DNA of 59,798 bases, the filler included, from Sphacelaria rigidula (Eukaryota): NCBI GenBank assembly GCA_964200075.2. It is 8 parts of 8 records of this genome, joined end to end, with 100 filler letters (N's around TTAATTAATTAA, not from the genome) between each part and the next. Parts side by side here need not be neighbours in the genome. Positions count along the whole stretch, not along the records: positions 29,951 to 37,337 come from CAXNAA020015147.1; 7 more parts are not named here. One strand, 5' to 3'. Every line of letters starts with the position of its first letter. Position 1 is the stretch's first letter. Below, one piece after another: positions 8,491 to 59,798 of this stretch. The notes beneath the pieces were generated by a model. It saw nothing but the letters and a program-made list of their open reading frames with translations, was not told the DNA's origin and did no database searches. Both the position numbers and the translations under genes were made by a program.

Positions 8491-8707
8491 GTGAGCGGAA
8501 CTCTGCTTCTAATGTATAAATTTCGCATCGCCCCTCACGCGAAGATCAACCGTCGACGATTCGGCACACCTCTCTGTTCATGGTTGGAGATCAACACGTG
8601 TAGTCTTTGATTTACCCATGGACGTTGTCGTAGCATTTGACCGCAAAAGATGGCATGTTCTTTCGTACACGCCGTGACCAGTTCCCTCGTCTGCGTACGT
8701 TGTGCAG

Positions 8708-8812
8708 AGAAAAAGAAGACGTGCAAGGACTACTACTGTCCCTCGGGCTACCAGAACCTCGGCGCTAAGGAGTGCAGCGGCGAGTGCGACACATACGAAT
8801 GCTGCAAAAAGG
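8708..8812 (+). CDS. Cys-rich repeat protein, module exon 3 (105 nt, phase 1-1)
   Basis: cag|...|gtgag. Encodes EKKKTCKDYYCPSGYQNLGAKECSGECDTYECCKK. Confidence 0.9.
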
Positions 8813-9089
8813 GTGAGCATGCAACGAGCTCCTTAGTAGATTGCTCCCAGTCTCAACCTTTCTGGGAGTACTTCCCACTCGGCATGTGGTACCGGCAGCG
8901 CACGTCGTCCTCGTTGAATGCTAGCACCCACGTCATTTTAGGAGTTGTGCGGTCTACCGTCTCACGGAGAAACCCGCGCGGGATAGTTCGCGAAACATCC
9001 CATGTCAAGGAAACCTGCGAATCTTCAAAAACCTTGAGAAGGAAATGTGCCGCGCTTTTTTCGTGCCGTGGCTTTTCCGTCCATTGCAG

Positions 9090-12944: not shown

Positions 12945-13600
12945 TCAGCTTACTAGCGGTTGGAGGACGTCGCATCTATTGCTCAAACCTTGAGTACGGA
13001 CGAGATCATGCGAAACAGTACCCTTGGAGTGCAGCCTACCACGCCAAACTACTTCGTGGGCAAAAAAAGTACACTTACGCGCAGCGACGAATAGACCAAC
13101 ACTCTCCACGCGGCCAAGAGTTTCGTCAGGCAAAGCTCACAGTGCTTCTTCGGTTTCAGCAAAGTCGAAAACGTCATCCACCCACACTTTACAGTTTAGG
13201 CCTCGCAACGTGTCAGTCAGCACACCTTGGAAATACGCCGTGGCCTTCAACACACCCTGCGGGACACGAGTGGGCGTAAACAAACCGTCCGGCGTGACGA
13301 TCGTGAAGATCTCCTCAGCCTCCGGCGCCAGAGGCCTCTGCCAATACCCCCGTAGCAGGTCCAACTTGCCGAAGCACTGGGCTCCCAGCAACTCCTGCAT
13401 GTCTTCTTGGCTTGGCATCACCCTTGGAGACTGTTCCACTTGCACGTTCACCGCCTGGTAGTCGCCGACCAGACGGAATGTGTTCCCTCTTTGGCACCGC
13501 CATCGCCGCACTCGCCCACACAGCCTGGATGTTCCTCACCAACAAACCAAACACCACCAAAGCTGCGATGCATGAAGCAAGCCACACGGTCTTCACCGGA
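12945..13600 (-). pseudogene. Gypsy reverse transcriptase, frameshifted
   Basis: WASAAMAVPK, FRLVGDYQAVN, FGKLDLLRGYWQ, FTPTRVPQG, VWVDD, KCTFFAHEVVWRG. Confidence 0.9.
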
Positions 13601-16064: not shown

Positions 16065-16507
16065 TTGTACCGATCTGGGGATTTCAGCATGTCTGCAGGC
16101 AATTTCCTCCCGCTGATTGAGGTTTTGAACCCCAGTCCGTTGGGCAGTGTTTCTCGGCTAGCGGTGATAAAAACAGATAAATTTCCCGATTTTCGGGCGT
16201 TGAGTTTTGGTGTGTCATCTGCTCAAATCCGAACACTTCCCAATGTGCGTGTACAAAAAACAGATCTGCGGCCCAAATCTGTTCAGTGTACACACAAATG
16301 ATTGGGGAACGTCTCGATTTGAGCATGAACGGGACATACCAAAAATCAACGCCCAGATAATTAGAAAATAGGTACTGGTTTTCTCACGGCTAGCGGGAAA
16401 ACACTGCCCAATGGGCTGGGGTCCGAGAACTCAATCCGCGGGAGGAAATCCCTTGCAGAGATGCTGAAATCCCCTGCAGAGGTGCTGAAATCCCCAAATT
16501 TGTACAA
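16065..16507. mobile_element. MITE/fold-back with about 110-130-bp TIRs
   Basis: 16065-16176 is the reverse complement of 16375-16507. The right arm carries an extra short internal duplication. Confidence 0.8.
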
Positions 16508-21188: not shown

Positions 21189-21860
21189 GGGCGTGTCTTA
21201 GCACATTTTTTTCGATCGAAAATGTGCGGTGGAAAAGGAAAACTCCGATCTGATAGGTCGTTATTTCAACCATCGTCGTTTATTTTGAATATGATTGAAA
21301 CTACGACCGATCAGGCCGGATGTTATGGCACACAGATTTTGGTCCACGGATTGTTCATTTGTATGGCGCATGAGCCACGTTTTGACCCCCAAACAGGAAA
21401 AATCACCAACTCACGTCTTGGACACTTTGCATCACCCCACAGAGAGGAGCCTAGCCCACTTTTCAGATTCGCTCGGCTCCAAGGTTTCGAGAGCCGCCGC
21501 TGAACAAAAATCCGTGTGCAACAAAATATACGGCGACCTCCAAAGATTACTGGACAAACTGGCGGGGGTCGCCAAGCACAGATTTTTGCACACGAATTTT
21601 TGTTCGGCGGCCAATCTCGAAACCTCGGAGCCAAGCGAATCTGAAAAGCAGACTCGGCTCCTCTCTCTGGGGTGATGCAAAGTGTCCAAGACGTGTGTCG
21701 GTGATTTTTCCTGTTTGGGGGTCAAAAAGGGGGTCAAATGTCCCCAAAGTGATCAAACCCTGGGTCAAAAATCTGTTTGCCATAACATCCGGCCTCAGAT
21801 CGGGATTTTAATTTTCCACCACACTTTTTCGATCGAAATATGATGTGCTAAGACACGGCC
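21189..21860. mobile_element. 672-bp fold-back element, PIF/Harbinger-like ends
   Basis: Almost entirely self-complementary. Ends TAA|GGGCGTGTCTTAGCAC...GTGCTAAGACACGGCC|TTA. Another terminus at 22230-22280. Confidence 0.85.
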
Positions 21861-22463
21861 TTAGTGTACAATCTAGAATATTAATTAATTAATTGGTTGG
21901 TTGTTGGTTGCTGGTTGGAAATGGATGGTTGGATGGTTCGATGCATTTAATTTTTGGACAAGGCAAAGACAAAAGCATAGCATGGCAGGTGTAATACGTG
22001 TACAGTATAGCATAGTTTTCCAGGTCCATCCATGGTTGAGCTTACGGGTTATTTTCTTGTCTCGTAAAAACGGGCCGGCGATACGTGCGTCATGTATGTT
22101 AAATCGGCAGCCATTGCACTTGAAAAAAATATGCATAATCCAGATGACCCACCCTCGCGGTCTGAGAGTGAATTGATTGCTTGATTGATTGCTTGATTAT
22201 CTCACATTATAAGCTGATTGCATCAATAAGGGCGTGTCCTAGCACTTTTTTGTTCGATCGAAAAAACGAGCGGTGGAATTGAGTCAAGTGAAAACTTCTC
22301 GTTTCGATGCAGTTGGGTCCGGATGGATTCTCAAGCTCTCGATCGAAAAAAGACAGTGAAATTNNNNNNNNNNNNNNNNNNNNNNNNNNNNNNNNNNNNN
22401 NNNNNNNTTAATTAATTAANNNNNNNNNNNNNNNNNNNNNNNNNNNNNNNNNNNNNNNNNNNN

Positions 22464-28910: not shown

Positions 28911-30649
28911 AAAAATAAAAATACTTGTGAAGATCATTCTGGGGTACCTTGGACTGTCGGGGTATGTAAAGTACCTAGCACTTCAAGGCACACAGGGTAT
29001 CTGTCCGCCAAAAGTGCTGAGTACCCCCGAGGACCGCGAAATCCTCGCCACCCCGAAATACTCGGTGTGGTATCTAGAGAGCTAGGGATCGAGCACAGAG
29101 GGTGTAGATGGCTCGAATTGCCGTATTTTGCACCTTTTCCCGAGTGTACCTTCGCAGGGTGGTTGCAGTATAAAATATGCGTCCATGTGAGGTAAAGGTT
29201 TGCCGAAAGTGGCGGTAGACTTGAAGGTCACTATCCTGTATTCAAAATCGGACCATGAGTATCAGGGCCGTGCGGCAAGCCTCGCAGTCTTGGGTGCCGA
29301 ATCAGCGACCTGTGGGTGAGATACAGATGTCGATCGTGTGTTGCTTTACTTTGAGTAGTTTTGCTGCGGCCGTCAGTATGTCCCGCACTCGAACGCGAAC
29401 GAGGAGTAGATGGACGAAGCCACGTATTCGCTTTTGTTTTTCATCTTGTATAGTATCCAGACGGACACATACGGGTGCCTCGAAATCTCAGCTGATTGCC
29501 GATCCTTTTCGCCTGTAGAAGGGAACATGGCCTAGCGGCCACGAACGAGCATGGCGGTTGGCCGCCGTAATCCCCCCGCTCCCCCTTCCAAAACACGAGT
29601 ATTTCGACTCTTTTTTCTTCTCGCTAGGTGTTGCTCAGAAATTTGTGTATTGATGGTCTGGTTCGATGGATTTCTTAGTTGATCGATGCACATTGGCCAC
29701 AAAAATAGCAATAGTTTCACACCCAGGCTCAATCAGAGAACATACTCGCCGAAGAAACTCGTGATGAGAAAAAAAGAGCATTTGTTCCCTCTCAAAATAT
29801 ATCAACCGGACATCGTTGAGTCATCCTGCGATAGGGGGGGGGGGGCGTACNNNNNNNNNNNNNNNNNNNNNNNNNNNNNNNNNNNNNNNNNNNNTTAATT
29901 AATTAANNNNNNNNNNNNNNNNNNNNNNNNNNNNNNNNNNNNNNNNNNNNAAAATGGACACAATCCCGGGGAGCGGTTGATTGTCATTTCAAAATACGTT
30001 CTCATTTTTCTGGCAACCCTGTTATAAAGCAACAACATCCACATTCGTCGCCGTATCAGGCAGCCTATTCCTCGACTACATTCCTTGCCCCCCTACCCTC
30101 ACCCACTTCTCCCATAGCCTGACCCAACACCCACCCCACCCCCGTTCCGCGTACTGTGTACTACGGTATACTCGCGTGTATCGCGCGAGTCTTGAGAGCG
30201 TATCCGCGCATCTTTTGACCGTACCTAACCAGAAATTCTTCGTTTCTCGGTCCGTGTACTGTGTACTTCGACATACTCGCGTGGATCGCGCAAATATGTT
30301 TCCGACTTTACCCGGCCAGGCATTTTTCGTTCACAGCCCCAACCAACACCCACCCAGCCGCGGTCCACTCGCCGTATACTCTGGTCCTTGCGCGAGTTGC
30401 GCAAATCGTTTCACTGCACAAGACGCTCTCCATCAACCCAACGCTCGATACACGAAGCTTCACGATAACCCAAGCGCAGCAGCATTCCCTATCAGCCATT
30501 ATCTGCAACGACCACGCTCTATACTCCCTTTACGCTGCCTTTCAGTCGCGGTTGAACTGGTCATCGACAGCAGCATAGGCTCACAGCCAGCTCTTGTCGC
30601 CGCGCTTGCCCTGGGTGATAGAGACACAAAACAAAAACTGGCTCGAGCA

Positions 30650-30895
30650 ATGCTACGGTGGGGGTGCACTTTTTGCGCGAACTTTTGTCTGGTTCAGGGG
30701 CTCCAAAGGATTCCAGATGCACAAGAATATGGGCCAGGGCATCCTCGTTCTCAAATTCAGTCGGGACATCCCTGGCACATTGGGTTTGTAATCCTGGCGT
30801 ACTCTCACATATTTAAGAAGTTGTGTTTTGGATGAGATAAAGGGCTCCTAACAATTATACCCTCAGAAAATATTTGTGCACCCCTACCGTAGCAT
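30650..30895 (+). mobile_element. MITE family A, best-preserved copy
   Basis: 20-bp TIR ATGCTACGGT(G/A)GGGGTGCAC, 19/20 match between the ends. Confidence 0.85.
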
Positions 30896-33058
30896 CACTC
30901 GCTCTCCGACCCGAAAAAGTAGCAAAATCCACGCTGTCGACCGCAACAGCCACGAACTCACACGCGAAGCTAGTCTCTACCGACAGCGCTGCTTGTCGTA
31001 CATGCCGTGCTTGCATTGTTGTGAGCATACCGATCCGAGGTACTGTTGTACGGTCTTCACAACGAGACGAACTCACTCCCGAAAAGAAGCGACACCTGGC
31101 CAGCACTTGGGGCACTGCAGTTGTAGTGCTGCCGTCAAATCACATTCTCAGCAGTGTACCGACAACACCATGTCCAAAGCAACAGTACCCGACAAGAAAT
31201 TGTCTAGCACCACCTACGTCTGTCCACGAGGGCAGGTGTGCTCAGCCAAGAGGCTCCCCTCCCCTCGCCCCTCACGCTTCACGTCCGCATACCGGCCAAC
31301 CGCCTGCGAAGCCCTGACTGTACCACAGTCCAGGGTATTGACCCTCACGACCAACGACAACAGAACTGCCCGAACTCACACGACAGTACCTGTCACCCTG
31401 CTGCGGACGTTCCAGGAACAGTGTGAGCGAGATTGCTCCTCATACTTGTACGCATCGACTGCATCATTCAGTTCCCAGCAAAGCAACACCGTATCCTCGA
31501 AAAATACGTGCATGTCTACCTCTACGTCTACCCCTGGATGCGGTCGCAGTAAGGCTTGAACATCTCACGATAGAAAGAGCTCCATATGTCCTCAACAAAC
31601 AATCGACACTGAAAATCCGAGCACAGGGATTGCCTAATAACGCTTCCATCCTTAAAGCACGGGAGGCGGGGGAAGGAACGAGGAACCTCGATACCATTTA
31701 CATCGAAACGGCGGGAGAGCTTTCGATGGCACCAAGTACGGAGTTGTCGCCGACTCAAAGAAAAAAACGAACCTATGTCATCATGACGGTGGAGGTGCTC
31801 ATTAGCAAATCAAAGACGTCGCTGGCCCAAAAGCGGCGTGTGTACCCCTACACCTCGCACTGAAACCGCTCGTAGTAAGGCGCAAGCAATTCAGTACAGC
31901 AAACGAGGCAGTCGTCTCCTGGAACGACGGAAAAAAAACCCCGACACACAAACAAAAATATAGTGCCGGTATAAAGTACATGAAGATATGCGCTAGGAGC
32001 TGCACGATACTGCCGCAGCTTGCCCAGCACCGAAAACGTCCCCCCAAGTCTTGAATGGTACGAAGTGTTCTAGGGCTACCGTATGATCGACACGAACGAA
32101 TCAAATCTCCAACAGCCACGCAAGCGATCATATTTGCGTCCTGGCGGAAAACAAAAATATCTGTAGGAGACAAAAACGATCGTTAGAGCAAGCATAGAGT
32201 AGCTGAGACCGTATATCGGGTTTCCTGCCAAGCTCACCGTTCAGCTCTGCAACAGCTTCAGCTTCACACATTAGGCAAAGTACAGGAGCCCGTCATGACC
32301 CACACCAAACTATGCACAATACACCAACACGATGTCAAACGTAGTCTCTGCACCCCTTGCCGCGGGGTGTATCCGTTTCTCGTTCAAGCCCGACATCTGT
32401 GTGGAGCCACCCGCAAGACAAAATAGCTGTGGCAGAACAACGTTCAAGAAAGAACGACAAAATGTGCCCAGTTGGTCGAAGGTCATGCAGCCGACGCTTG
32501 TTTGGCGACGGACAAAGGTCGAGTCTACCAGCGTATGTTCTCCTACCCATTGCATCCGCCTCAGGGCTGCTGACGTGTTACGCATCGCTGGCCCTGCGTG
32601 TCTCGCCTAGAGATAGACGAGGCGTGAGCATTTTGGGAGGGAACGACGGAAGAGGCAGGTAGGCCATGTAACCATTGTCGATCGGCAGGTATCTGTAGCA
32701 AATATCGTGTGCCCAAGAACAAGAGGCATGCACTATGTGTGCCCAAATGAAGCCTTGGGCGCCTCCACGGCTATGAACTGGAAAAAAAACAAAGCAGGCG
32801 CGTCGTGTGTCTGTGTCTGTAGAAGACGCAAGCGGTGTGGGAGACGACGAAGCTCCGTCTCCATGAGCGTACATGGATGCACATGCAGTGGTATCCTCGT
32901 GTCCTAGCGAACAGTTCTGTATCACATGTAGCATCCTTGGTGGAGCAAGATACCACAATGAAGTCGCAAAAAACACACCAAGGTCAAGCGAAAGTCGAGA
33001 CGAACTTCGCAGGGTGGTTCAAAGACCCGTGATGAGCTATTACAGTATCTCCCAACTC

Positions 33059-35468
33059 TCACCTCCTCCGACCCAGGAGCACCCTGCCTCCCCTATCACG
33101 GGGTTGGGGGCTGTTCGCGTATCCCCTCATGTGCAGGATCCACGCCCGCACGAGAGTTGGCCACCGGGTAGTGCGAGCCCATAGGGCGCACGTCGCCACG
33201 GCAAGCTCCAACGAAAGCACGACCATGGCAATGGGCATGCTCACACGAAGCAATGCCTCTAGCGCAGCAGCCCATCGGTGGTCGGGCATGCTCACACCAA
33301 GCAACTCCTCTAGCGCAGCAGCCCGTCGGTGGTCGAACGGGTCTTCCTCTAGAGAGACGATGCGGATCAGACGCTGCGAGTGCTCCATCACTCCGGTCGC
33401 ATCCTCGTCGTCGTACACAAACCCGATGGCCGTCACGGTCACGGTCACCAGTACGAGCTAGCCTACGGTCAAGGCCACCATACCTATCGCGTTCAGCTTG
33501 TGCACGATACGTATCGGCCCCGCAAGGTCTGGCCGAGCACACACGGCGTACGTGGTCATGGTGCTCACATAGGCAAAGACCAATGTGAGCGCGAGGTGCA
33601 ACGCAAACATCACTACAGGACCCGCATCGCCCCACCCGAGGGATTCCGCGTTCCACACGATACGACAGGCGTGTGTCACATCGTCGACCAGCGGGGTGAT
33701 GGTGACCAGAGAGTACGCGGATGCCACTGCGACGGAGATGAGCTTCTCCTCGCTCCACGCGCTGTCGTCGGCTAAGCGCTCTAGCAAACGGCCAGGGGGC
33801 CACACGACGCACACTGTACTAACCCAGTGCTTCGCCACCCGACAAACACGGACAACGGGCCGCATCATAGCCAGCTCTGGCAGAGCTCGGCCACCGCGAA
33901 TGATGCCGTGTCCTACGCGGACGAGCAGCGCTAACGTGAGCTCCCACGCAAACCACACCAATGTACGGAGCATGGGGAAGACATGGACGACGCAGACCAC
34001 GACAAATGTAATCGCTACTACCACGTGGACAACCAGAAGGCCAATAAAGCAGAGTGCCTGGAGGATGCAGGGGCAAGTATGCGGGCAGGCGGAGAGCAGA
34101 GGGAGTCGGGATCGTTTGCTGGGACAAACACAGCAGCTGCTGGTGACGAATATGCATCCCTCAAACAGGGTGAAAGAGCGGGGAGAGGGGGGTTACCACT
34201 ACGCAGCAGCAGGGAGGGAGAGTTGGACTTAAGAAGCAAAAGCACCAACGCTGGTTTTGATCTATACGAACACCTTTCGAAAATGGTGACGGATTGATGA
34301 CGCGTTTCGACGACACAAAATGGTGATGGCATGTGATACCTCAAGAACACGAGTAAACGAAGTGTGCTGGGCCCCACCTTGTCTACCTCATCACCGACAG
34401 ATTTCCACAAATATCTCGATACAAAAACAGCGCGAATGGTCTCAGACACAAGCAAGACTCCGCCCTTTAGCCAATCGGTACAGACTTGTCCCACTGGAAC
34501 ATGCGCCCTTCAGCCGCACTCGCGCCATTCCGCTGTTGAATTTCAAGCTGAAAATGAGCGTTACACTGCGGTCAACCTTTGTTTCTGGACACCGTGCACA
34601 CAGCGTTACACGCCTTCAACGTACGTCGCGACATGCAGTGCAGCAGAAGCCCACCCACCTCTCATCGGTCGTGAAGCTCGAGGTATTTCTCCTCCAGACC
34701 CAGGTACTCGTAGTGGAGTTCCAGGGTTTTGCGCTCTAGGATGGCCCTGTTGTTCTCGACGGAACATAGGCCATCCTCCGCAACGGCCAACTGCTCGGTG
34801 AGGTGGCCGATGCTCGCGTCAGCCGCTGACAGTTTGGCCCTGAGGACGTCCCCGTTGTCAATGGCTGCGCGCAGCTGTTTGCGAGCGTGCCGCAACTGCG
34901 TCTGCTCTTTGTACAAGGCAGTCTCTAGGGCGGTGTGTTGTGCGAATGCGGCACTTGCGCTAGCGGAAACCACGTTCGCCGCCTCTTTCACCCCCTGCGC
35001 CGACTCGCGGCATCGTTGCAGGTCGAACTTCTCCTTCGCCATCGCCTTCTTTGCGGCCACCTGGAGCATGTTTAGCGCCAATAAGGAAGCAGTGCAGATT
35101 AAAATCATGACAAAATCGAACAACGTTGCGTAGTTTGACACACAAATCAAGACGAAACAGGGCGGTGCGCCGGCAAATCCATTGACGAGTGCTCCTCGCT
35201 TCGGGGTTTTGTTGTCGGAATCTTCCAGTAGACTGCCGTTTTCGGGGTTTTGTAGTGTTGCCGTACGCGCAAGTGGCGCGATCTGCTGGGCGTGGAGGGC
35301 GAACGGGGTCGAGCGCAAGCGCATGAACTCCCCGCACGTACAACTCACCCGTGCCGTCTCCTCGAGGTCGAAGGCGATCAGAGGGTGGACACATTCGATG
35401 TCAGTTTTCTGCGCCAGCTCCTCGTTTCCCCCGCCACCGACCCAGTCATCGGCTTCGACCCCCGTCAT
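33059..35468 (-). pseudogene. Probable spliced pseudogene: coiled-coil plus multi-pass membrane protein
   Basis: Exons 35468-35349 (ATG...|gtgagt), 35060-34659 (cag|...|gtgggt) and 34057-33059 (ctccag|), all joined in phase 0. In-frame TGA at 34664-34662 and TAG at 33460-33458. Coiled-coil-like exon 2, several hydrophobic segments in exon 3. Confidence 0.5.
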
Positions 35469-36269
35469 TGTTTTCCCCTGGTCCTCTCCTCTGACATTAG
35501 ATCGGTTCGTCTCGGTGGAGCAGGAGGACCAAAACAGCAACCTCTGCAGAAACCCTTCGCCTCTGCACCCTCTGCAGAGGGCGACACAGACAGCCCGCCG
35601 GGGAGGAAGAGTAGGCAGCCGAGGGCAAACAGAGGCAAGGCTAGTGTCTTGGTCTGTGCGCAGCGCATCACACAGCATGGAGCACGACAAAACAAACAAG
35701 CACACTCTCGGAAAGAACAATTATCCCTCGTAATACCGGCAATGACCACTGGGTACTTCTTCTCGTGAAACCGGCTAGAAATTTTGTCATGCACATCTGC
35801 AATCGCAACATTGTATATGCTGGACTACCATAGTACGTCACGCATGATGAACTAAATACTGTAGTGTGGATGTTGCTTCGTCGCCGCCAGTCCACTAGGA
35901 ATCTCACGGGGCACAGTCGATAGCATATAGCAATGTAAACATGTGTCATTGATCGTGCGGTGCACACCGCTCAAGCTACACATCATCTGCTGACGCCCGA
36001 GCAAGGCGAGACCACAAACTCGAGCGACCGACTTACCCTGCTTGCACCCCAGGCACGCTGACGCCAATCCCTGCTTCAGCGCGAACTCCCGAACCGCACG
36101 CGAAAGCCGACACGGCGACAAGCAACACATGGACAAACATCGCGTCCGCCTCTAGGCAAACGTCCCCTATGAAGAAATATTCCAGCGTACGACGGACGGG
36201 AGCAAGACGGGGAGGGTAAGACATGCCGATGGCGTTAGTCAAGTGGAGCCAATGTGATATGATACAGTA

Positions 36270-36561
36270 TGCCCAGGAAGCTAACAGCGTATACATCGAA
36301 CCAGTGAGCGCTCACTGTGTCAATGAGTGAACTGTTTTGAACAAAAGATTTGCGGTTCGAGCCCCGGCATGTTCGATCGTGGAAGGAAAGTTTGAGATGT
36401 GAACAGTAAGGCTTGCGGGGGGCTGGGAGCCCCGGAGATCACTGAAGTGTCATGCCGGGACGGACCACACACCATAACTTTTGTCCGGAAAGGGAACAGT
36501 TTACCCATTGCATCAGTGAGCGCTCACTGGTTCACTGGGTAAACTGTTCACTTCCTGAAGA
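36270..36561. mobile_element. Hairpin-terminal-repeat element, family 2 (old copy)
   Basis: Terminal palindromes 36270-36343 and 36482-36561 centred on AGCGCT. Each continues inward through ACAAAAG to a B-box-like motif (GGTTCGAGCCC at 36354-36364). Confidence 0.7.
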
Positions 36562-36839
36562 TGATACGGTGCGGTACGGGACAGCTAATATCGGGCGTAA
36601 GCATAAAACGACGTCTTGTTAAAAAAAGGTACCGCATGATGAAGACAAAAACATGATTCGGGCAAGATTCGATGACATCAGAACAACTAGGAGGACTACG
36701 AGGGTCCGGGTCCAACTATCCCGTGTTGCGGAGGGCATGACTCGTGTGTTCGACAAATATTATCATGAGAACAAAAAACGCCATCCAGGGCGTGCCTCAT
36801 CAAATTCGGACCAGAGTACTGCTTGCTGAGTAGTCTTTT

Positions 36840-37262
36840 TACTGAGCATCCCGATACATGAAAATCCCCCGGAGTAAAACGTTTCACACATCGCACGAGC
36901 TTTTACTCGTCGAAACGAGTGCACTCGTGGATGGTTTTTCGGAAAACAAGGGGCATGGCTCATGTGCTCGAGTCATTATTTGTTTTCACAACGAGCAATG
37001 GCTCGTGTGCTCGAGTCATGCAGATTTTTCACAAGGAGCAACGACTCGTGCGCTCGAGCCATTTTGTTTTTCTACAACGAGCAAGGATTCGTGTGCTCGA
37101 GTCATTTTTGTTCTTTCACAACGAGCAATAATTTGTATGCTCGATTCATTCATTCTGCCACAAAGAGCAATGACTCGAGTGCTCGCCCTACATATGTATT
37201 ACTCAGCAGGTACTCCCCGCCGCTTTAGTAGAACTCTGATCTCTCTCCCTCTCTCTCTCTCT
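36840..37262 (+). repeat. Minisatellite-bearing dispersed element ending at (CT)n
   Basis: About 40-45-bp units acaacgagcaatgactcgtgtgctcgagtcatt. Inverted homolog at 52441-52925. Confidence 0.8.
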
Positions 37263-37437
37263 GTAGGGGGGGCGTTCTCATGTGTTGCTTGCCTTAGTCG
37301 TCTGACCATTGACCACGCATCCCTTTCGAGACGGAGCNNNNNNNNNNNNNNNNNNNNNNNNNNNNNNNNNNNNNNNNNNNNTTAATTAATTAANNNNNNN
37401 NNNNNNNNNNNNNNNNNNNNNNNNNNNNNNNNNNNNN

Positions 37438-37620
37438 GATCGCTCCGGGAATCGAACCCCCCAACTCAACCATCAGAAGGTTACGAGGTTACCAACTGAG
37501 CCACCGGGGCGCGGTGGAAATCATATATAACGAAGAAAAAATCAAATGCATCGGGAATCGAACACCCGTTCTCTCCACCCTTATGGCGACAGTCGAATCA
37601 TTACACCACCGGGACGCGGC
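37438..37620 (-). mobile_element. Two tandem tRNA-like SINE heads of different families
   Basis: gtcccggTGGTGTAATGA...TGTTCGATTCC (like 43571), followed by gccccggTGGCTCAGTTGG...GGTTCGATTCC. Confidence 0.7.
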
Positions 37621-43840: not shown

Positions 43841-46800
43841 TTTAAAGTGCTACAAATAAAAGCAAATAAATGATGAAATCAAATGAACCCACACTGGGAT
43901 ATCGGGTGCTCCTCCCACCCCCCGTCCGTATGCATGGGTGGCAGTTTCAACTTGTGGGCAGCCTGAAGTCGATGCAAATCCAACACTAAACCAAGCACTT
44001 GCTGTCTGAACGTTCAAGTCAAACGGTTTCGAACAGCATGGTGAACACACGATTGATGCAGATTCAAACACTGAAGTACCATAACGCCAAATACCGTTTC
44101 CACGTTGGACACGATTCACTTACAGTGCACCCCAGGTCGAGTAGGTACAATACTGGTACAAACCACATCAAACTCGTGCAGTGCTTCACGGAATACTACC
44201 AACAACTGTTTGGCCGCACTATACATCTAGTGATTGTCGACGCCATACGGCCACTAGGAGGCGAGAGTGAGAGCTGATTGATGAACCCAGAGTACAGAAG
44301 TGTCCTGAGGGTGCGGCGGGGGGGCTGGTTGATCCCATGAGAGCACAACCTTTCCCAAGGGGGACCAGTTAAAAGTATGACCGAAAAATACCCGTGTGCG
44401 TAGACGCCACCGCATAGAAGGGGGAAATTGCTACGAGTGTCTATCGACGTCTCCTCACGCTCTGGTGTCGATTGGCGACGCCATGAGATGATTCCGTATG
44501 AATCATGACCAGGAGATCCGGGGTTCTAATGGCGGCCTCCATTGATGTGAACGGCATACAGTACAAAACCCTCAAAGTCAGTGAACAAACCAAGCCTTGA
44601 GGGTGGAGAGGAATATACGACAGAGGGTGGGGGACTCGCAGGTAGTGTTGCAAACTCGCGGAGGAGTCTTGTGAGGAAACTGTTGCCTTAAAAACCAAAC
44701 GCAGGAGACTTATGAGCAGGAGGTGCACAAATCCCCATACCTGTAGCGGGTGAAAAGGGTTTCGACGATAAGCCTTTTCTCGCGAAGAACGTGCAAAAAG
44801 ACCTATACATGATGGGATGGGGGCNNNNNNNNNNNNNNNNNNNNNNNNNNNNNNNNNNNNNNNNNNNNTTAATTAATTAANNNNNNNNNNNNNNNNNNNN
44901 NNNNNNNNNNNNNNNNNNNNNNNNTCACCCCTCGTGATCTCGTTTTCGGACTCTTGTTTTCGAGAAAATCCCAGATATTTCTATACCTCGTTTGGATCTT
45001 GGACCGTCATATCCCATCCCTGCATCAGTCAAAATGTAGAAATAATGAATTCCTCGACACTCTTGCAGTCCACCTGCACCAGTTCTTCGAAAAAATTGGA
45101 CGCATCATCCACATGCTCCTTCTGACATGAACGACAAGCCTGTCACGTGCTCGTTCAAACACGTGACAGTCCATACAAAAACGTGCCATGGTCAAAGATC
45201 ATTGATGCATGCGCGCGTAATGTCTTTATCTTCAACCGCCGGAAGCACTCGCGTCATACCTGCTCACATACGACGAGACTACGCATTTTATGTCTTTCAA
45301 GTCATTTCCACGCTAACAGCAGGTGTCACCGTCTCCTCCAGTCAGTGCGAGCCTACGCATTTCGTAGTGTTTTGCTCATTTTCACTCTAACAGCAGCAAT
45401 CCATATACCGTGCAGTCAGTACGTGCAAACCGCACAAATATGATTAGACTGTGTTTCTGCGCGAACAAGATTATACGAGCTTCTCTTCATTGAGCGTACA
45501 GAAGGATACTAAAAACTGCCCCACCCTAGGTCGTCACCAAATACCATTCATATCAGTACCATTCGAGCAAAATTCGCACATACCTGCCAAAATTACACTC
45601 AGCATATGAAAATCCGCACATGTATGCCAGCATTTTACTCAGCACATGCAATGCCACCTTCCTCCTTGTAAACACCATGCATCGCCCGTTCCAACCAGAT
45701 CAGCACAACACACACATGCCAAATACCCACGTGTACGCCAGAGTTTTACCCTGCACACGCGATACGATCATACTCACTTAACAACCATGTTTCATGCGCA
45801 AATATGACCACAAACCACACAATAACAAGCTGCAATCATTCTCAAAACGATTCGCGAATACCAGTCATACTGTGTTTCCTCATTCTGAACAAGCACTCAA
45901 TCACCTCAGCACTTGCTCCTCAACATCAGCACCCAACGCGGCGCTCACCTCAACAGCAAACACCTCAGGTAATGCTTTCTTTGCAGTATTCCAGCCCGCT
46001 CCTGAGAAACAGCAGCACTCGAACCACAACCCCATGCACAGCGTAGAGCAGCTTTCCCACTCGAACACTCGCTCCTCGCGCCATGAGTCCAGCTACAGCT
46101 CGCACCCTCGTGGAGCCGCTCAGCTCGCCAATTAACGGTATATCCGCACCACCGAACCAATGCGACAAGCCATCTGCCTCCATAGATACCATGGTAGTCC
46201 TGAACACCTGTGCTTCAGTCAGTTTTACAGAGAAAACCAGAGGCGAAACGGGAACATCCACACAGTCCCGAATAGCAACACCTCCTGATGGCGGTACGGC
46301 ATCCTCCTCAAATACCCCGCGGCGCAACGATGGAGAAACCTCCGCCATCGCCGTCAAATATGCCAAAGCTGTCCATGTGAACCGCAGGGCACACGACCAC
46401 CCCAACACCACGCCACGCTCGTCGTCGCCGTCAGAATTGTGATTGCTAACAGCATCACGAGCTTGGAGCTCACTCTGCGTACCTGCTTCACGCGGGTCAC
46501 ACGCCCCTGTTGTTTCGATCATGCAAGGCGTGTCCACAGCTACGCGCTGGTCCGGCGGCAATTTCGCCAACCCGGCATCCACCTGTCCTTCAAGCAGACA
46601 CCGCTGCGAATTATCTGAACGATCTCCCACCATGTCACTGACGTAGATAGATTTACCATGAGCACGGCAAGCTCCTTGCTCACCCTGCTCGTCCGCAATA
46701 CGCGAATAACACCCACCCTGCAGCTGGTCCGGCGGCAACAAGCAACTGGGACTTCCACCCACTGGTACTTGCTTATTGTCCCATGTAGGCCTCGCCCTCT

Positions 46801-47074: not shown

Positions 47075-47460
47075 CACCGCGTTGTTGCTTCAGTCGCGGG
47101 TGAGCTGCTTCTACTACTGCACGCTCAGCAGGTGCACTATCGTGCCCGTCCCCTCGGGCAGACACATGCCTCTCGGCTTTCACGGTGCAAGCATCTGCCC
47201 TGTATCGTTGCTTCAGATGCGGATCACCTACTGCACGTTCGGCGGGTGTACTGTCTTGCCTGTCCCCTCGGGCAGCCACATGTTTTAAAGGCTTTCACAG
47301 TGCAAGCATCTGCCCTGTATCGTTGTTTCAAACGTGCACCACCTACCGCACGTTCGGCAAGCGCACGGTCGTGCCTGTCTCCTCTGACAGACACATGATT
47401 TTTGCTCTTGACAGTACATGCGAGAGCGCTCTCATGCCTGTTCCCTCTGACAGACACGTG
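47075..47460 (-). repeat. About 114-bp tandem repeat (about 3 units), coding-like
   Basis: Units read HVSxRGDxHDxAxAERAVGxxxLKQRYRADACTVKA on the minus strand. Confidence 0.75.
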
Positions 47461-47833: not shown

Positions 47834-50800
47834 TGTGAACCTGCCTGGAATCAGAACAAGATTACAGTGCTGCTCCACAGGCTTCCTCCCTGTCCAAGGC
47901 TCCAGAGACTTCAAGACTTCAAGCAGTTATAGAAACAGCATTCTTCGTTTACCAGAAGTGATCGACCTACCTCGTTCTGTATATATCATACATCACAGAG
48001 TCCGCCGATCATACTCTCAGACCCGGTATCCATCAACCAGCATATAAACGCCTGCTACGCATTTCTCCACTGCAGTAATAGGTAACAATGTTGCCCGGAG
48101 TCTACAGCACCCCCAAAGTAGTCAACCTAGAGCGTGATGAACTCAGACATCATGGTTGCCGAAGTTTATCGTCAATCCTCACATAGAGTGGCAATCTTTA
48201 CCACAGTATTCGATGACAGCCGTACAACTTTGTCCAATTTCAGAACAACTCGCAAGATATCCATGATGTCCATCATGAACACGCAATCACGCTACTCGCA
48301 TCGCTCCGAGTCACGGAGCGATATCTGACGCCCAATTTTCAAACCCATGCCTCAAACAAGTTCCCCTGACTCCAAACCGGCAAAAAATGTAAACGTCAAC
48401 GAACTTCAAATTCTGGAGCCATCGTGACAATTTGTCTCTCGCATTCGATACCGTTCAACATACAAATTCCTCTTTCGTAAGTTCAATACCTGCGCAACGG
48501 AGTGCAACAGCCAAGTAATATACCTGAAACTAGAATCAAATATGTACCCAACACGTCTAGAACGCAGCTGGCCTCTTGCTTGTTCAACTCCCTCAAAACG
48601 TATGCCTCGAACACCTCTTCTTCGTGAAAGCTTCATTGCCCCACTCAACTCATGAGTATACTACAAAAAAGAGAGAAGCCATGGCTCAAAGCGCATTTCA
48701 AGCCATGCATACCACTCCAACAACGGCAAACGGACCTCGACCTCCGCCATCATTGGCAACCCGTAGTGATGTCGTTCTCAAACTCGTTTTTACCGAGTAC
48801 ATCCCAGAAAGCACCCAAATATAATGTCCCAACTTGGATCTAGGACCGTGATATCCCATCGGTCAATCAACCGCGATAGGCCATATCCCAGCAGACTTGC
48901 ACCTCACCTACACCACTTCCTTAGACAAACGAACGCTCCATCTACATGATCCTTCCAGACGGAATTGAAATATTCCCTCAAAGGAAGTTCCATAGCCAAA
49001 GATCAGTCACCTTTAGCCACAAAAACGCTCGCATTTTCCTTGCGCACATACGAGCCTACGCATTTCGTAGCTACAGGTCATTTTAACGCCAACAGCAGCA
49101 ATCACCATCTCCTACAGTCAGTACCCACAAACTGCACAAAGAGAACTCCGCCACGGGTCTGTGTGAGCAGGAATATACGAGGTTCACGTTATCCAGCATA
49201 CAGCATTATGTTGAAATTTTCCTCACCCTGACTCTTCGCCAGTTACCATGCGCACTAACATAATATAGCAAACATTCCACACATGCATGCCAGCATTTCA
49301 CCCAGCACATGCAATGCCACCTTCCTCCTCGTAAACACCATGCATCGTCCGTGCCAACCAGATCAGCACGACACACACATCCTAAATATCCACGTGTACG
49401 CCAGAAGTTCACCCTGCACACGCGATACGATCATGCTCGCTCAACAACCATGTTTCATGCGCAAACATGACCACAAACCAGACAATAACAAGCTGCAATC
49501 ATGCTGAAAACGATTCGTGAATACCAGTTATAATGTGTTTTCTCATTCTCAACGAGCACTCAATCACCTCAGCACTTGCTCAGCACCCAATGCGGCGCTC
49601 ACCACAACAGCAAGAACCTTAGGTAATGCCTTCTTTGTAGTCCTTCAGCCCGCTCCTGAGGAACAGCAGCACTCAAACCACAACCCCGTGCACAGCGTAG
49701 AGCAGTCTTTCCTCTCGGACACTCCATCCTTGTACCTTCAGTCTCGCCACACCTGGCACCCGCATCGTGTTGCTCAACACGCCTCTAAAAGGTATATTCG
49801 CACCGCCAAACCGATGTGATAAATCCTCTGCCCCCACAGATGCTTGAGCATCAGCAAAAGCTCGTGCTTCACTCATTTCTTTAGAGAAAACGAGAGGCGA
49901 AACGGGAACAGCCATACAGTCCCGCACAGCGACGCCTCCCGATGGCATCACACCATCCTCCTCAAGCACCTGACCGTGCAGCGATATAGACACCTCAATC
50001 AACGCCGCCAAGCACGACAAACCTGTTGATGTAAGTAGCAGTGCATATTACCACCCCAACACTACGCAACACTGGACGTCCCTGTAGGAATTATGACCGC
50101 TAATAGCATCACAAGCCTGAAGATCGCTCTGCCTACCCGCTTCACGCGGATCACACACCCCTGCTGCTTCCAGCATGCATGGCGTGTCCTCAGCTACACG
50201 CTGGTCGTGGAATACAAGTCTGTCGCGCGGATCTAAACCCATCAACTTGGAATCCACCTCCCCTTGAAGCAGAGATTCCTGCGGGGCTGTACTTGCTCCC
50301 GCCGGAGGATCATAAGCATCGCACCTGTGACAAACTCAGCCCACACATCGCCAACAGCCTCGGGGCACTGTATTTTGGTTGGGCGCGCTATTTGGCTCAT
50401 CAGCGGCTGCTGCAGCCGCGGCGCGTCGGCCAGCCGCTGACAATAGTTTCGCTGTGCTTGGCAATATCAGGTGCTTAATCCTGAGCCTTGCCATGTCAAA
50501 ATTTGAAAGAAATGTAGAAAATTTCCAGCTGCTTCCCAAGCACAGAAACTGCAACTCTACCCGTACACCAAGACGAGCTTTATCAGTAGCACTATGGCGA
50601 CCACAGCACCTCTTTTCACGCAGCTCTGTGACAGTTTAAGAGACAACCAACTAGACTACTGATCAGTCAGCGTTGTCTCTTAAACCGTCACAAAAATTAG
50701 TCGCTGGTTCGATTCCCGTCGGACGCATTTTTTTTAAAGAAAACAAAAGGAGAGAAAACCTCTGTAAAAATTGGCCCCAAGGAGAGAAAATCTCAGCAAA

Positions 50801-51792
50801 AATTGGCCCAAAGAAAAAGGGTGGGGTATAGCCTGGTGACTAAGTTTGGAGTTGACTGCTATGGATCCCAGTGCACACTCTCTTGGAATGAGTGGGGGAG
50901 ACGAGTAACTCTAGGATATGGTGGGAAGAGACAACATTAGAGGTCCTGATTGCAGTCGATAGAGCGCCAAGGGGATTCGCCCTCCTCGGAGTGAAAGTGA
51001 CGGGGATCGAACCCCCACGACTAACTTTTGTGACGGTTTAAGAGACAACCAACTAGACTACTGACCAGTCAGCGCTGACTGGTCAGCAGTCTAGTTGGTT
51101 GTCTCTTAAACCGCCACAGCTCTCACCACGTTTGGAAGTCTTTCCTAGACTTCTCTTCTTGAACGCGGCTGGCCAACCTTGAACTAGCCCTCTTGCAATT
51201 CTCCCGACTGAGGTAGTAATTGCGCCGCGTTTTATCGCAGGCTCTCCGGGCAACCCAGCTGGTGATCAACCGATACCAAAGCGTACCCTGGCACTGCATC
51301 AGAACCTTCTCGGCTCTACTCATACCATCCTCCTGTGCGCTGCCATCTTCCCAAAAGGCTCCCCTCCTTCAGTTACCTTGGCTTATATGACCAGCGCCTC
51401 TCTTTCCGCCGCTTCGTCCCCCCCTGTTTTCAACGTGAGCGTCCCCCGTTTTTCAGACTGTGGAGTGCGGCTTCAAAAACCCTTTCCAGAAACGACAAGT
51501 TTCCTGAATAAACGTTTATTGTGAACCTGCCTGGAATCAGAACAAGATTACAGTGCTGCTCCAGAGACTTCCTTCCTGTCCAAGGCTCCAGAGACTTCAA
51601 GACTTCAAGCAGTTATAGAAACAGCAGTCTTCGTTAACCAGAAGTGATCGACCTGCTTCGTTCTGTATATATCATACATCACGGAGTCCACCGATCATAC
51701 TCTCAGACCCGGTATCCATCAACCAGCATATAAACGTCTGCTACGTATTCCTCCACTGCAGTAATAGGTAACAATGTTGCCCGGAGTCTACA
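47834..51792 (-). mobile_element. Complete non-autonomous LTR element (3959 bp) with TACC TSD
   Basis: Near-identical 273-bp LTRs at 47834-48106 and 51520-51792 (TGTGAACC...GTCTACA). TACC on both flanks. G-tract next to the left LTR on the minus strand. Confidence 0.9.
50627..51118. mobile_element. Hairpin-terminal-repeat element, family 1 (492 bp, GCTC TSD)
   Basis: Palindromic terminal repeats at 50627-50692 (24-nt deletion) and 51029-51118 (90 bp), TGT...ACA. Inward A/B boxes. GCTC on both flanks. Confidence 0.9.
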
Positions 51793-52437
51793 TACCTCCG
51801 CGCTTCTCATCAAGCGCCGAGCCACCACGACATGTGTACATAGTTGACAATCACAAAGCAGCACCTCAACAGCGTTCCAGAAAATCCAGCCTTGTTTCTC
51901 AATCACAGGAACAACAACTTTCCATACACCAAGATGCGCTTGGCCACCAAACGACAATGGCAACAGCGCCTCTTCCCCACGCAGGTCTCACCACGTGTTT
52001 GAAGTCCCTAGACTCCTCTTCCTGACCGTACCTGCCTGACCAAGGGTGGAACAGGCAACCCTCGCTGGCTCCACCAAGCAGTGATTGCGCCGCTTTTTTT
52101 TAAACGCTCACGGGCTCGCCAGCTGTCGTCCCCCCGCACCTCACGCACAATGATACCACAGCCCACCCTAGCACTGCCTCAGAACCTCCTCGGCTCTACT
52201 TCTCCAACTCCTCACGACGTTATACGCCTTGAGCTCGTCTTGTTTGCTGCAAATTGATCAGGCCTGCAGATTTCCCTATCTTGATGTGTCAGCTGCTTTT
52301 CAGCGGACCTANNNNNNNNNNNNNNNNNNNNNNNNNNNNNNNNNNNNNNNNNNNNTTAATTAATTAANNNNNNNNNNNNNNNNNNNNNNNNNNNNNNNNN
52401 NNNNNNNNNNNGCACCACCCCCCCCCACTACCGACAC

Positions 52438-52500: not shown

Positions 52501-52925
52501 AGAGTTCTACTTAAGCGGCGGGAAGTATCTCTCGAGTAGTACATTTATAGGAGGAGCACTCAAGTCATTGCTCGTTGTGGAAAAATGAATGACTCGAGCA
52601 CCGAGTCATTGCTGGTTGTGAAAAAAATGAATAACTTGAGCGCACGAACCATTGCCCGTTGTGAAAAAAGCTCATGACTCGAGCAACGAATCATTGCTCG
52701 TTGTGAAAAAAATGACTGACTCGAGCACACGAGTCATTGCTCGTTGTTGTGAACAAAATGAACGGCTCGAGCACACGAGTCATGCTTGTTGTGTTTAAAA
52801 AACAACATCCATGAGTGCACTCGTTTCGACGAGTAATGACTCGTCCGACGTGTGGAAACTTCGTTTGCACCCCTGTGTGATGACCCGCACTCTTCAGGCA
52901 CATTATGTGACAGGATGGCACTCGG
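52441..52925 (-). repeat. Second copy of minisatellite element abutting (GA)n
   Basis: (GA)n at 52441-52497, then atcagagttctact...gtcattgctcgttgtgaaaaa units. Reverse complement of 36840-37262. Confidence 0.8.
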
Positions 52926-55692: not shown

Positions 55693-58290
55693 CATTTTAC
55701 ATCAGCCCTTTTTCGCCAACTTAGCGCCCGTGGCCACGAAGTCATGGCACAGAAAGACAGAACATATGGAAAAAAATAATGCGCACACGGACAGGAAAAT
55801 ATGACACCCCACAGAGCCGGGTTCTACGCACACGTCAGTGAAAACAAATCAAGTACACAAAAGTACACGTACGGCTCGAGAAACAAACTAAAAACGAGGG
55901 GATATCGTCGGCTACACGCCACGTGGGCCATGGGAGACAAAAAAGGCCAAAGTAGGGGAACGATATAGTTCGGCATACCGGACAGGGCAAGGCAAGGCAC
56001 GGCAAGACGACGCGACACGGGCCAAAGGATGGTAGAACCAAAAGACGAGCCTACACAAAGGGAAAAGGAGCGGACAAAACAGGCCTGAACAGCATAGGGT
56101 AAAACAGAATAAAAATGGAACACACTAGCACAAACCAAATCGAAATCAAAACAAATGGCAAGTATCACAAGGAAAAATGAAATAAAAGGAGGGTGTTGTC
56201 ATCAGCCGGTCACGAATGTCGCCACGCTTTGCTTCTTCCATCTTCTTTTCTTCTCTGACAGTGGTGCAGGGGGGCCCTCCTCCGCTTTCCGGTTTCGTTT
56301 CTTTCTCCTTCCGCCTCCCTGCCAGTTCGTGTTCTTCTCTGTCCGTCCGCAGTCTCTCTCTCCTCTCTCGTTCGCTTGTCTTATTTTCCACTCTCTCCAA
56401 CCGGCGCTTCACCGATGCTTTCTGTTCTTATCGATGCAATTTCGCCATGAACCATTTCACCCCCTTTTCCACCTTGCCGTGCCATTCTCTTGGTTCCGTG
56501 GAGCTCGTTTCGGCGCTCGCTTTCCATATCCCGTCTCCTTCTGAGAAGTGAAGGTCCTGCTCTGGGCATTTCACCCCCATCGAGTTGCTGCCACCCTCTG
56601 TACCCCACTACCTTCTTCAACGTTCCCAGCATGACGCGCTTAGGGAGTTGGTCAACAAATCAACGGATGACGAATCCGGCATAGAGTAGTCTCCTTTTGC
56701 GCACGGTGACCTCGAGGGTTTCGGTCCAGTTGTTCTTGAGGGCCTCGACGTAGGACAGAGGGAGGTCCGTGCGCATCCTCTTGTTTCACCCGATGCAGCG
56801 TGTGAGGAACTGGCCGTGGGCCCCATAGAGCTTCTCGTCTTGCTTGTTCAATAAGGTCCACGTCGCGCTCCAGTACTAGAGGGTCTTAGCCACTTCGTCT
56901 TGGAGCGGTCGTACTTTGAGCCGGGAGGAAGCTTTCGACGGTCGCACATCAACTGGCCATTTCGCCTGTAGCATCTCCATGCTCGGTACGGGGGATTCGA
57001 CAACTCTTTTCCCATCTTCCCGTTCTCGGAAATAGTCCCCGCGAGGTATACAAACCTGCTGGTTTGGTCGTGCCGGCCTTGACCCTGAATGGGCACTCCT
57101 ACATTCCTCTTCGCAGCAAGCATATGATCTTCGTCTTCGCCTTTGATACTGTCGGTCCGAACCAACCTGAAATGCGCACGGTGGTCGACATAATCTTCTC
57201 GAGGCTTTCTGGAGATCGCCGAACGATGCCCGTGTTGTCGGCGTGTAGCTTGCCCCAGAGCGGTTTCGCCGCCTCGGCCATCGTGACCTTGCCCCTTTTC
57301 CCTGGCAAGCTCTTGATCTTGGCCGTTTCCATCGTCACCTCGTCATCTTTGGCGAACTCTTTTACAAACACAATGAGCATTGCGGCAAAGAAAAGATTGA
57401 ACAGCAGCGCTGTCAGGTTGCACTCCTGTCGGAGCCGCTCGCCCACGTCGAACCGGTCGGAGCACATCCCGTTGCTCATCCGCACACACGCCCTCATGCC
57501 GTCGTGGAAGTGGCGGGCGATCTCCAACATCTTGGGGGCTGTCGAATCGCTTGAGCACGGTTCACAGCAGCTCTCCATCGACGGAGTCATATGTCTTGTC
57601 GAGATCGATGAAGCACGGGTAGAGGTGGGCGCTCTTCTTCCGCGCCACTTCATGGAGTCGCCAGATCACGAACATCACATAGGTCGAGTGGGCTGGGCGC
57701 AAGCCGCTTTGCTCCTCCAGGAGGATGCCCTCGCTCTCGCAGTAGTTGCTCGAGCGTGTGGCGACGAGTTTCAGTGTCACTTTGCTAGCGTGTGCCATGA
57801 GGGAGATACTTCGGTAGTTGCCACACTCTGTCGTGTGGCCCTTCTTGAACGGCACCTTAATGCTGGTGTCCGTACACTGCTGTGGCACCACTTCCGTCTG
57901 CCACATGGTGACGATGATATCGTGAAATCGATACAGGAAGTCTTGGTCTCTATCGAGGACTAATTTGATGAGCTCCTCAGAGAGCTCGTCCGGCCATCCT
58001 GCTTTCCTGTTGGCCATTCCCTGCATCGCTTTTTCGACCTTGAACATGAACGGTATATCGTCGAGCGGCACCACTGGGGCCACTGCTTGATCTATTCGAT
58101 CATTCGCGGGTTGAGGGTTGGCAACTTGATGTTAAGGACTTTGTGAAACCATCTGGGCAACCGCGCGGGGATGAGCACGGGATCCCGCGCGTGCTTGCCG
58201 TCCTCGCCCTTTATGTTCTGCGGGGCGAAGGACCGTTTGCCTTCCACGTCCAGCCCCTTAATGTGCCGAGAAAAACCGGCCATTTCACGG
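55693..58290 (-). mobile_element. Non-LTR retrotransposon (RTE-like LINE) relic, 5'-truncated and frameshifted
   Basis: RT motifs across frames: KAGWPD...[37 protein letters not shown]...LLFNLFF, LHADN (decayed YADD), KTKII and FVYLAG. T-rich 3' region ends in (CAT)n. The 3' extent is inferred. Confidence 0.85.
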
Positions 58291-59740: not shown

Positions 59741-59798
59741 TGTGACGGTTTAAGAGACAACCAACTAGACTACTGACAAGTCAGCGCTGACTGATCAG
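59741..59798. mobile_element. Third copy of family-1 hairpin terminus, cut by contig end
   Basis: tgtgacggtttaagagacaaccaactagactactgacaagtcagcgctgactgatcag, near-identical to 51029-51086. Confidence 0.9.

Follow-up and report, generated by a model that had tools for sequence, protein, structure and literature searches.

MITEs (miniature inverted-repeat transposable elements), like foldback elements, are small and non-coding, carry terminal inverted repeats (TIRs) bracketed by a target duplication, occur in many copies and have a strong potential to form hairpins. These features, the target duplication being putative, are seen at the locus described here, positions 36270-36561 of a 59,798-nucleotide stretch of Sphacelaria rigidula DNA (GenBank assembly GCA_964200075.2; below, the window), and a second family in the same window has the same layout. 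Unlike in MITEs and foldback elements, here a single terminus already makes up a zero-loop palindrome, 80-90 bp long, conservation is strongest at its tip and foot, and a B box lies inside the repeat. Because each terminus is self-palindromic, the terminal repeats are direct and inverted at once. The inverted terminal repeat (ITR) of adeno-associated virus (AAV) is composed of a palindrome and the D sequence, has its nicking site at the palindrome foot, and folds into a T-shaped hairpin. The elements resemble the ITRs of AAV and parvoviruses in that a terminal palindrome is followed by a short unique stretch, with the inverted arrangement at the other end, and in that a motif is placed exactly at the palindrome foot. 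They differ in being 292-492 bp long, chromosomal, multi-copy and flanked by target duplications, in lacking a Rep gene, in residing in a brown-alga-like host, and in forming simple rather than T-shaped hairpins.

Ginger1 and Ginger2 elements end in TGTNR and duplicate 4 bp of target, at CCGG/CCGT or in AT-rich sequence (PMC2836005), and IS481EU elements, bounded by TGT...ACA, make duplications of two discrete lengths, 4 or ~15 bp (PMC10045372). As far as these descriptions extend, the ends of family 1 (TGTGA/TGTGG) fit TGTNR, its flanks include a possible 4-bp repeat, and IS481EU is a case of one group with discrete, differing lengths; however, the ends of family 2 (TGTCC, TGTTC, TGCCC and TCTTC) do not fit TGTNR, its flanking repeat is 9-10 bp, the CCGG/CCGT target of Ginger1 is not seen, and neither family could be tied to an integrase-type transposase. 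Mutator-like elements, foldback forms among them, are described with 9-10-bp duplications and long terminal repeats (PMC3169594, PMC3310237), both of which recall family 2. Family 1 with its 4-6 bp does not match them, no MULE transposase was found in the window, and self-palindromic ends are absent from the descriptions available to us. None of the known families compared fits both: taken singly, family 1 could be mistaken for an element that has an integrase-type end, and family 2 for one that has a Mutator-like duplication.

IS200/IS605 and Helitron elements have hairpins of ~10-30 nt, with Helitron-type ends of the form 5' TC...CTRR 3', and insert in one orientation without regular duplications. 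Replitrons are described with short direct terminal repeats and a palindrome of at most 11 bp (PMC10288648). With these HUH elements, as described, our families share palindromic or hairpin sequences at the ends, which in HUH elements are recognised as structure; their ends and flanking repeats differ, and no HUH domain was found in the window. Dada elements, which according to the description available are devoid of inverted repeats and insert into tRNA or snRNA genes, so that the gene comes to flank them (PMC3706591), were considered and rejected: the flanks here are not tRNA-like, and the tRNA-like pieces lie inside an element with long inverted repeats. tRNA genes and tRNA-derived SINEs have in common with our elements a perfect B box/T-arm motif and, at one terminus, acceptor-like sequence and a T8 run; unlike in these, there is no cloverleaf, the family-2 A box is at chance level, there is no tail, and the units are paired in inverted orientation within one duplication. 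A lead rather than a match comes from an Ectocarpus microRNA study, which describes many "complex, extensive palindromic" loci with multiple small RNAs over several hundred bp (PMC4513859); the likeness in palindromic character and size was drawn from that description. Full-text literature searches, run mostly outside subscription journals and excluding Repbase/Dfam, turned up no element described as joining a tRNA-like piece to ends that are palindromes in themselves, and our claim of novelty is modest. A paper on introners (PMC12130899) held no hairpin, palindrome or tRNA terms.

We propose, with a probability of roughly 0.6, that a short, non-coding element of MITE/foldback type, present in many copies and moved in trans, most likely as DNA, has left an old and partly decayed copy at 36270-36561. 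The hairpin-ended families are best filed as a variant of miniature inverted-repeat or foldback elements, for which the label "Pol III" is overstated and the mechanism is possibly structure-dependent.

Results

Anatomy of the family-2 element

The window is made up of eight ~7.39-kb pieces joined by runs of N around TTAATTAATTAA, and pieces that are neighbours here need not adjoin in the genome; the spacers (7389-7488, 14877-14976, 22364-22463, 29851-29950, 37338-37437, 44825-44924 and 52312-52411) show as a 7.47-kb periodic "repeat". The element at 36270-36561, referred to as family 2, lies in piece 5 (29951-37337), and family 1 is found within piece 7, with a further hairpin where piece 8 ends. 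The family-2 locus comprises the following features.

36270-36561: family-2 element, 292 bp, non-coding, with two inverted palindromic ends, bracketed by an imperfect 9-10-bp direct repeat
36260-36269 (no strand): direct repeat flanking the element on the left, one putative copy of a target-site duplication, 8/10 identical to 36562-36571 and flush with the element ends
36270-36343 (no strand): left terminal palindrome, decayed, with a 16-nt centre at 36302-36317 and 75% identity to 36482-36548
36344-36371 (plus strand): left inner, non-palindromic part of the TIR, with AAAG, a spacer, a T-arm/B-box-like motif (36354-36364) and then CCCGGCATG
36372-36450 (no strand): unique interior, non-coding, with a small GC hairpin at ~36421-36435
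36451-36481 (minus strand): right inner part of the TIR, with a decayed B-box-like motif (3 mismatches to the consensus) and the foot motif
36482-36561 (no strand): right terminal palindrome, 80 bp, the best-preserved part and multi-copy core
36562-36571 (no strand): direct repeat flanking the element on the right, the other putative copy of the target-site duplication, partner of 36260-36269

Read inward from either end, the order is a palindrome of 74-80 nt, the foot ACA/AAAG, a spacer of 6-12 nt, the T-arm/B-box-like motif and CCCGGCATG, inward of which the two sides diverge and leave ~80 nt of unique interior. As inverted repeats, the arms 36274-36336 and 36495-36557 are 79% complementary over 63 nt, and the homology reaches to ~36371 and ~36451, that is, ~100 nt on each side; the compound terminal repeat is put at ~100-130 bp per end. 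The family-2 terminal repeats are also direct, with 75% identity over 67 nt. The left inner part (36344-36371) holds a perfect match to the B box GGTTCGANNCC and can be aligned with the other three termini. The interior (36372-36450) has no second copy in the window and no similarity to the family-1 interior. An open reading frame and Pfam scan of the region detected neither coding capacity nor a Pfam family, and a search with the adjoining 352-amino-acid open reading frame returned no relatives.

The earlier note on this DNA had claimed an 80-bp palindrome at 36482-36561 and a decayed one at 36270-36343, and both are borne out by measurement. In the right palindrome, complementarity between the arms 36490-36522 and 36521-36553 reaches 88% over 33 nt, pairs form about the centre at 32 of 40 positions, and the single-stranded DNA folds at -22.9 kcal/mol (z = -6.6), a value equalled by none of 200 shuffles. 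The left copy pairs at 21/40 positions, and its DNA fold is ordinary (z = +0.6; 144 of 200 shuffles were as good). After this much decay it no longer qualifies as a palindrome by itself and was recognised by homology: its outer arm is identical to 36482-36521 at 28 of 40 positions, and it shares the 16-nt centre. This centre has two exact matches in the window, plus the family-1 centre at two mismatches, where 0.03 were expected and none of 100 shuffles reached three. The claimed identity of the inner junction with that of family 1 also holds, the foot 10-mer TAACTTTTGT being exact at 36475 and 51022, and the inward motifs and flanking bases read as the note gave them. Searched over its full length for zero-loop palindromes, the window yielded solely the intact hairpins of the two families (scores 20 and 39), and none of 12 dinucleotide-type shuffles used as control reached 16.

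Kinship of the two families

Family 1 consists of one element and a further partial hairpin.

50627-51118: family-1 element, with the same layout as family 2, including the inverted-repeat ends
50627-50692 (no strand): left terminal palindrome, most of the inner arm deleted internally; DNA fold z = -6.5
50693-50735 (plus strand): left inner part, with the foot motif (1 mismatch), a perfect B box at 50706-50716, an 8-nt acceptor-like stretch and T8
50997-51028 (minus strand): right inner part, with a perfect B box (51003-51013, minus strand) and the foot motif
51029-51118 (no strand): right terminal palindrome, 90 bp, 43/45 paired; -45 kcal/mol, z = -16.2
59741-59798 (no strand): third hairpin, partial, ending at the window end; 97% identical to 51029-51086

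Alignment of the termini indicates that families 1 and 2 are homologous along the whole terminal unit, beyond a merely shared plan. Between families, the arms are identical at 20/40 and 21/40 positions (50-53%). Identity is concentrated in the ten positions adjacent to the tip (8/10 and 9/10; 12/30 in the rest of the arm) and in the 10-nt foot motif, which is identical in two termini and carries one and two mismatches in the other two. With the stems aligned over 40 positions, both intact hairpins are paired at 32, and at 14 of these 32 the base pair differs between them, i.e., is compensated. The pairing of the stem is thus kept through ~50% sequence divergence, which implies either selection on master copies or a copying process that rebuilds one arm from the other. 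The proposal of the earlier note that the locus represents a class rather than a one-off gains support from the homology of the terminal units, the 14 compensated pairs, the kept tip and foot, and the multi-copy hairpin found in public contigs (below).

Where conservation falls within the arm bears on the mechanism. TIRs bound by DDE transposases usually conserve their outer ends most. The retention of tip (8-9/10) and foot over the rest of the arm (12/30) is the reverse of this pattern and counts against a plain DDE-type MITE. The main alternative, possible albeit unlikely, is that the palindromes act not as linear ends for a DDE transposase but as DNA hairpins or cruciforms of a hairpin-dependent mobile element of an undescribed eukaryotic kind. 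In such an element, a Rep/HUH-type nuclease, a hairpin resolvase or a site-specific recombinase would recognise the tip and the foot and nick or resolve the DNA there, much as happens at parvovirus ITRs or at the hairpin ends of HUH/resolvase systems, and the B box would tie the element to Pol III/TFIIIC. The arrangement of a palindrome and a unique inner part, inverted at both ends, is in keeping with this, as are the focus of conservation on the tip and the 10-nt foot, the 14 compensated pairs that preserve the stem, and the unequal flanking repeats of the two families, which would suit a less regular insertion step. However, the host resembles a brown alga, and to our knowledge no parvovirus-type replicon is known from brown algae. 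The ends of IS200/IS605 elements have their modules arranged on the same strand, whereas here adjacent modules are inverted. The Pfam scan revealed no Rep, resolvase or recombinase gene in the window. Finally, flush flanking repeats are typical of staggered-cut transposases and unexpected for HUH elements, which, as described, as a rule have none (PMC10288648). We therefore regard a non-autonomous DNA element of MITE/foldback type as the better account of these termini.

Flanking repeats and element ends

The earlier note saw no 4-bp target-site duplication in the flanks of the family-2 element and left them unresolved. The flanks, TGATACAGTA and TGATACGGTG, agree at 8 of 10 positions when read flush with the element (null p = 0.0077) and at 8 of 9 when the element is begun one base earlier (p = 0.00075). 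Even when a few registers are allowed for, they are best read as a decayed, imperfect 9-10-bp target-site duplication, with p of ~0.0008-0.008 applying to fixed registers. In family 1, the flanks agree at 4/4 positions (GCTC, p = 0.0075), or at 6/6 (CAGCTC, p = 0.0006) if the terminal CA is shared. With one complete copy visible per family, the lengths are 9-10 bp for family 2 versus 4-6 bp for family 1. This apparent inequality, if real, would run against membership in one superfamily, which would be expected to give one length.

An empty site was sought in two ways. None was found among the contigs of four public runs aligned to 35000-37337, and in the comparison of paralogues, neither a 3.7-kb duplicate at the family-1 locus nor a satellite-bearing homologue of the family-2 flank could be aligned across the insertion points. 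The former belongs to a ~3.7-kb duplication in which 45613-46552 aligns with 49276-50206 (81%) and 47834-48106 with 51520-51792 (96%), and in which the ~1.3-kb middles do not align; the second middle holds the family-1 element, and the first a 115-bp tandem repeat (47114-47402). The satellite is a 42-43-bp tandem repeat present at 36955-37185, ~400 bp from the family-2 element, and in opposite orientation at 52554-52793; the surrounding sequence 36882-37262 is 80% identical to 52857-52476. In all four runs, one contig form skips 60 bases (36236-36295), a deletion that takes in the left flanking repeat together with 26 bases at the start of the left palindrome.

TG...CA ends are present on three of the four hairpins. 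This raises the question of a miniature terminal-repeat retrotransposon similar to TRIM elements, in which the TG...CA palindromes would be tiny long terminal repeats and the tRNA-like piece a primer-binding site. The direct repeats (75% over 67 nt) and the 4-6-bp flanking repeat of family 1 would agree with such an element, which we nevertheless consider very unlikely: the tRNA-like piece reads inward in the tRNA sense rather than being complementary to a tRNA 3' end and does not start with TGG, no polypurine tract precedes the right repeat (36460-36481 is CT-rich), and the flanking repeat of family 2 is 9-10 bp long.

Relation to tRNA genes

The earlier note ascribed a Pol III architecture to both families. 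The B box stands, being perfect in three of the four termini, and the remaining parts of this architecture, i.e., A box, tRNA fold, match to a tRNA model and terminator, do not. The B box GGTTCGANNCC has four matches in the window versus 0.5 expected, and 0.12% of 45-nt windows hold a perfect match. An A-box-like motif is present where the note had placed it; scored against the A-box consensus TRGCNNAGTGG, it has three mismatches, a level reached by 38% of 45-nt windows, so that the label corresponds to chance. In total, the A-box mismatches number three and four in family 2 and two and four in family 1, and two mismatches are reached by 7.5% of 45-nt windows. The two-mismatch match in family 1 lies 35 nt upstream of a B box. 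A run of at least four T follows just one of the four termini, the left one of family 1, where T8 starts 11 nt past the B box in a geometry like that of a tRNA gene, and in this terminus the A-box-like part of the hairpin is deleted.

No tRNA-like fold was seen from the hairpin centre inward (z = -0.9, +1.6 and +0.45). ARAGORN at default settings and Rfam at gathering thresholds each gave no tRNA model match, nor did Rfam to an E value of 10. With relaxed settings, ARAGORN reported a "tRNA-Pro" over the right hairpin of family 1, which had a 47-nt intron and flanking bases as acceptor. We rejected this call, as it needs a 25-nt unpaired variable region, nothing similar appears in the other termini, and the same setting gave 23 "genes", mostly with huge introns. 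Matches of the hairpins to Rfam microRNA precursors (22.8 bits against a gathering threshold of 70, and 35.7 against 113) were likewise discarded, since any long hairpin scores so. A search for a dinoflagellate spliced-leader relic gave no matches. The likeness to tRNA is thus confined to ~20-30 nt about the T arm.

Another candidate reading is that each hairpin with its tRNA-like piece is a Pol III unit whose transcription, by way of A and B boxes, would start close to the centre of the palindrome and run inward; the unit would then be a small hairpin-RNA gene or a SINE-like retroposon derived from a tRNA. The perfect B boxes in three of four termini, against 0.12% of background windows, speak for this, as do the recurrence of a B-box-like motif in the loose-end consensus of other copies (below), the family-1 A-box-like match with two mismatches 35 nt before the B box, and the single terminus with tRNA-gene-like 3' geometry (T8, 11 nt after the B box). 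We nonetheless consider it improbable. The family-2 A-box match is at chance (three mismatches, 38% of windows), the sole terminus with a terminator has lost its A-box-like region, and the other three lack a T run of at least four. Neither a tRNA-like fold nor a tRNA call (Rfam to E 10, ARAGORN default) was obtained. Moreover, the units are inverted pairs within one pair of flanking repeats and have no A-rich or repeat tail, unlike SINEs.

Elsewhere in the window, a tandem pair of tRNA-like sequences, whose B boxes are perfect or nearly so, is located at 37438-37510 and 37543-37615 (both minus strand). A T run follows the latter, and the former ends at a piece boundary. Since ARAGORN at default settings and Rfam searched to E 1 report neither of them, they look like tRNA-derived repeats or pseudogenes.

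Copies in public contigs

Contigs from four public runs (two studies, one possibly of the source sample) were aligned to 35000-37337; the summed contig depth obtained in this way is not equal to copy number. Over 36482-36559 the summed depth was 25,134-72,760, versus 112-435 in the next flanking bin, an 84- to 224-fold difference seen in all four runs. The interior was intermediate, with 10,335-36,089 over 36404-36481 and 657-2,612 over 36326-36403. The 42-43-bp satellite reached 137,567-628,814, far above the hairpin family. Past 36559, the contigs that continue numbered 71, 77, 68 and 80 per run, and their consensus begins with CAAAAG in all four runs. A B-box-like motif is found in the loose-end consensus of one run. 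The agreement among the loose ends is low (0.37-0.40), and hence the inner parts vary among copies. Family 2 is thus a multi-copy family in a brown-alga-like genome, the extra copies being known through summed depth and loose-end consensus. A second version of the family-2 locus, ~10% diverged, likewise carries the element, which makes the insertion an old one. Exact patterns of both hairpins and a class-level pattern had no match in metagenome, viral or prokaryote genome contigs.

These data also bear on whether the palindromes are mobile at all. The locus lies within a low-copy repeat with a diverged second version, and the window is rich in repeats; such surroundings could give rise to palindromes as products of local rearrangement or as assembly artefacts. 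However, the same hairpin occurs in contigs of all four runs and both studies, at very high summed depth and with varied neighbours, its layout is common to two diverged families at three places in three separate window pieces, and none of the 12 shuffles yielded a palindrome of this kind. We therefore regard a non-mobile origin as extremely unlikely and retain the reading as a mobile, non-autonomous element.

Other sequences in the window

No transposase or autonomous partner was seen in the window, where Pfam searches of 110 open frames returned retroelement pieces and one chance-level match. The former include a Pol of gypsy type, in which reverse transcriptase, RNase H and integrase zinc-binding domains were recognised (253-2211 and 2951-3328, plus strand), and further reverse-transcriptase fragments at 13140-13535 and 57565-58131 (both minus strand). 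The closest named relatives of the Pol at 253-2211 are Ectocarpus proteins (46-50% identity), and the stretch also occurs in public runs labelled "algae metagenome" and in those of a coded organism; for these reasons the host is treated as brown-alga-like. A further atlas search with the Pol frame yielded no informative taxon. At 7504-8818, three copies of a cysteine-rich, coding-like unit occur at spacings of 840 and ~322-325 bp, each with a GT donor-like end. By their sequence these look like repeated exons of a gene for a secreted cysteine-rich protein, and they have no Pfam match.

The window further contains a pair of ordinary foldback or MITE-like elements (21320-21795 and 16070-16480), neither of them a sequence relative of the hairpin-ended families. 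In one, the inverted arms measure 188 nt (83%) and are set 58 nt apart; in the other, they measure 100 nt (83%) and are set 198 nt apart. Ordinary inverted-repeat elements thus exist in this genome, a point in favour of the MITE/foldback reading.

Discussion

Inverted-repeat ends, flush flanking repeats, multi-copy status, the non-coding sequence and the kept pairing together support a DNA element of MITE/foldback type at 36270-36561. Its compound end would comprise an outer 80-90-bp palindrome (TG...CA where intact), a tip centred on AGCGCT, the foot ACA/AAAGTTA and the B-box-like inner piece. As the element encodes nothing, it was presumably moved in trans by an enzyme encoded elsewhere. Transposition at the DNA level, which we infer from the features above, would proceed by cuts at the outer ends and a staggered cut in the target, followed by gap repair that gives rise to the flanking repeat. 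The palindromes may represent a cis-acting requirement of the enzyme, which would need either two inverted copies of its end sequence or an extruded hairpin. We take the B-box piece for a passenger of tRNA origin, to which TFIIIC may bind.

A plain DDE-type MITE is at odds with two observations: conservation within the arm is lowest at the outer ends, and the flanking repeats of the two families, as seen in one complete copy each, differ in length. The preservation of stem pairing, tip and foot, while the arms drifted, points to an enzyme that reads structure. We know of few eukaryotic transposons that depend on DNA hairpins at their ends, and this makes an autonomous partner worth finding.

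If the reading as a non-autonomous DNA element is true, the two families would provide a repeat-library entry for a poorly annotated, brown-alga-like genome, in which near-perfect hairpins of 40-45 bp risk being mistaken for microRNA or tRNA-related genes. In addition, the B box carried inside these repeats could scatter putative TFIIIC-binding sites across the genome.
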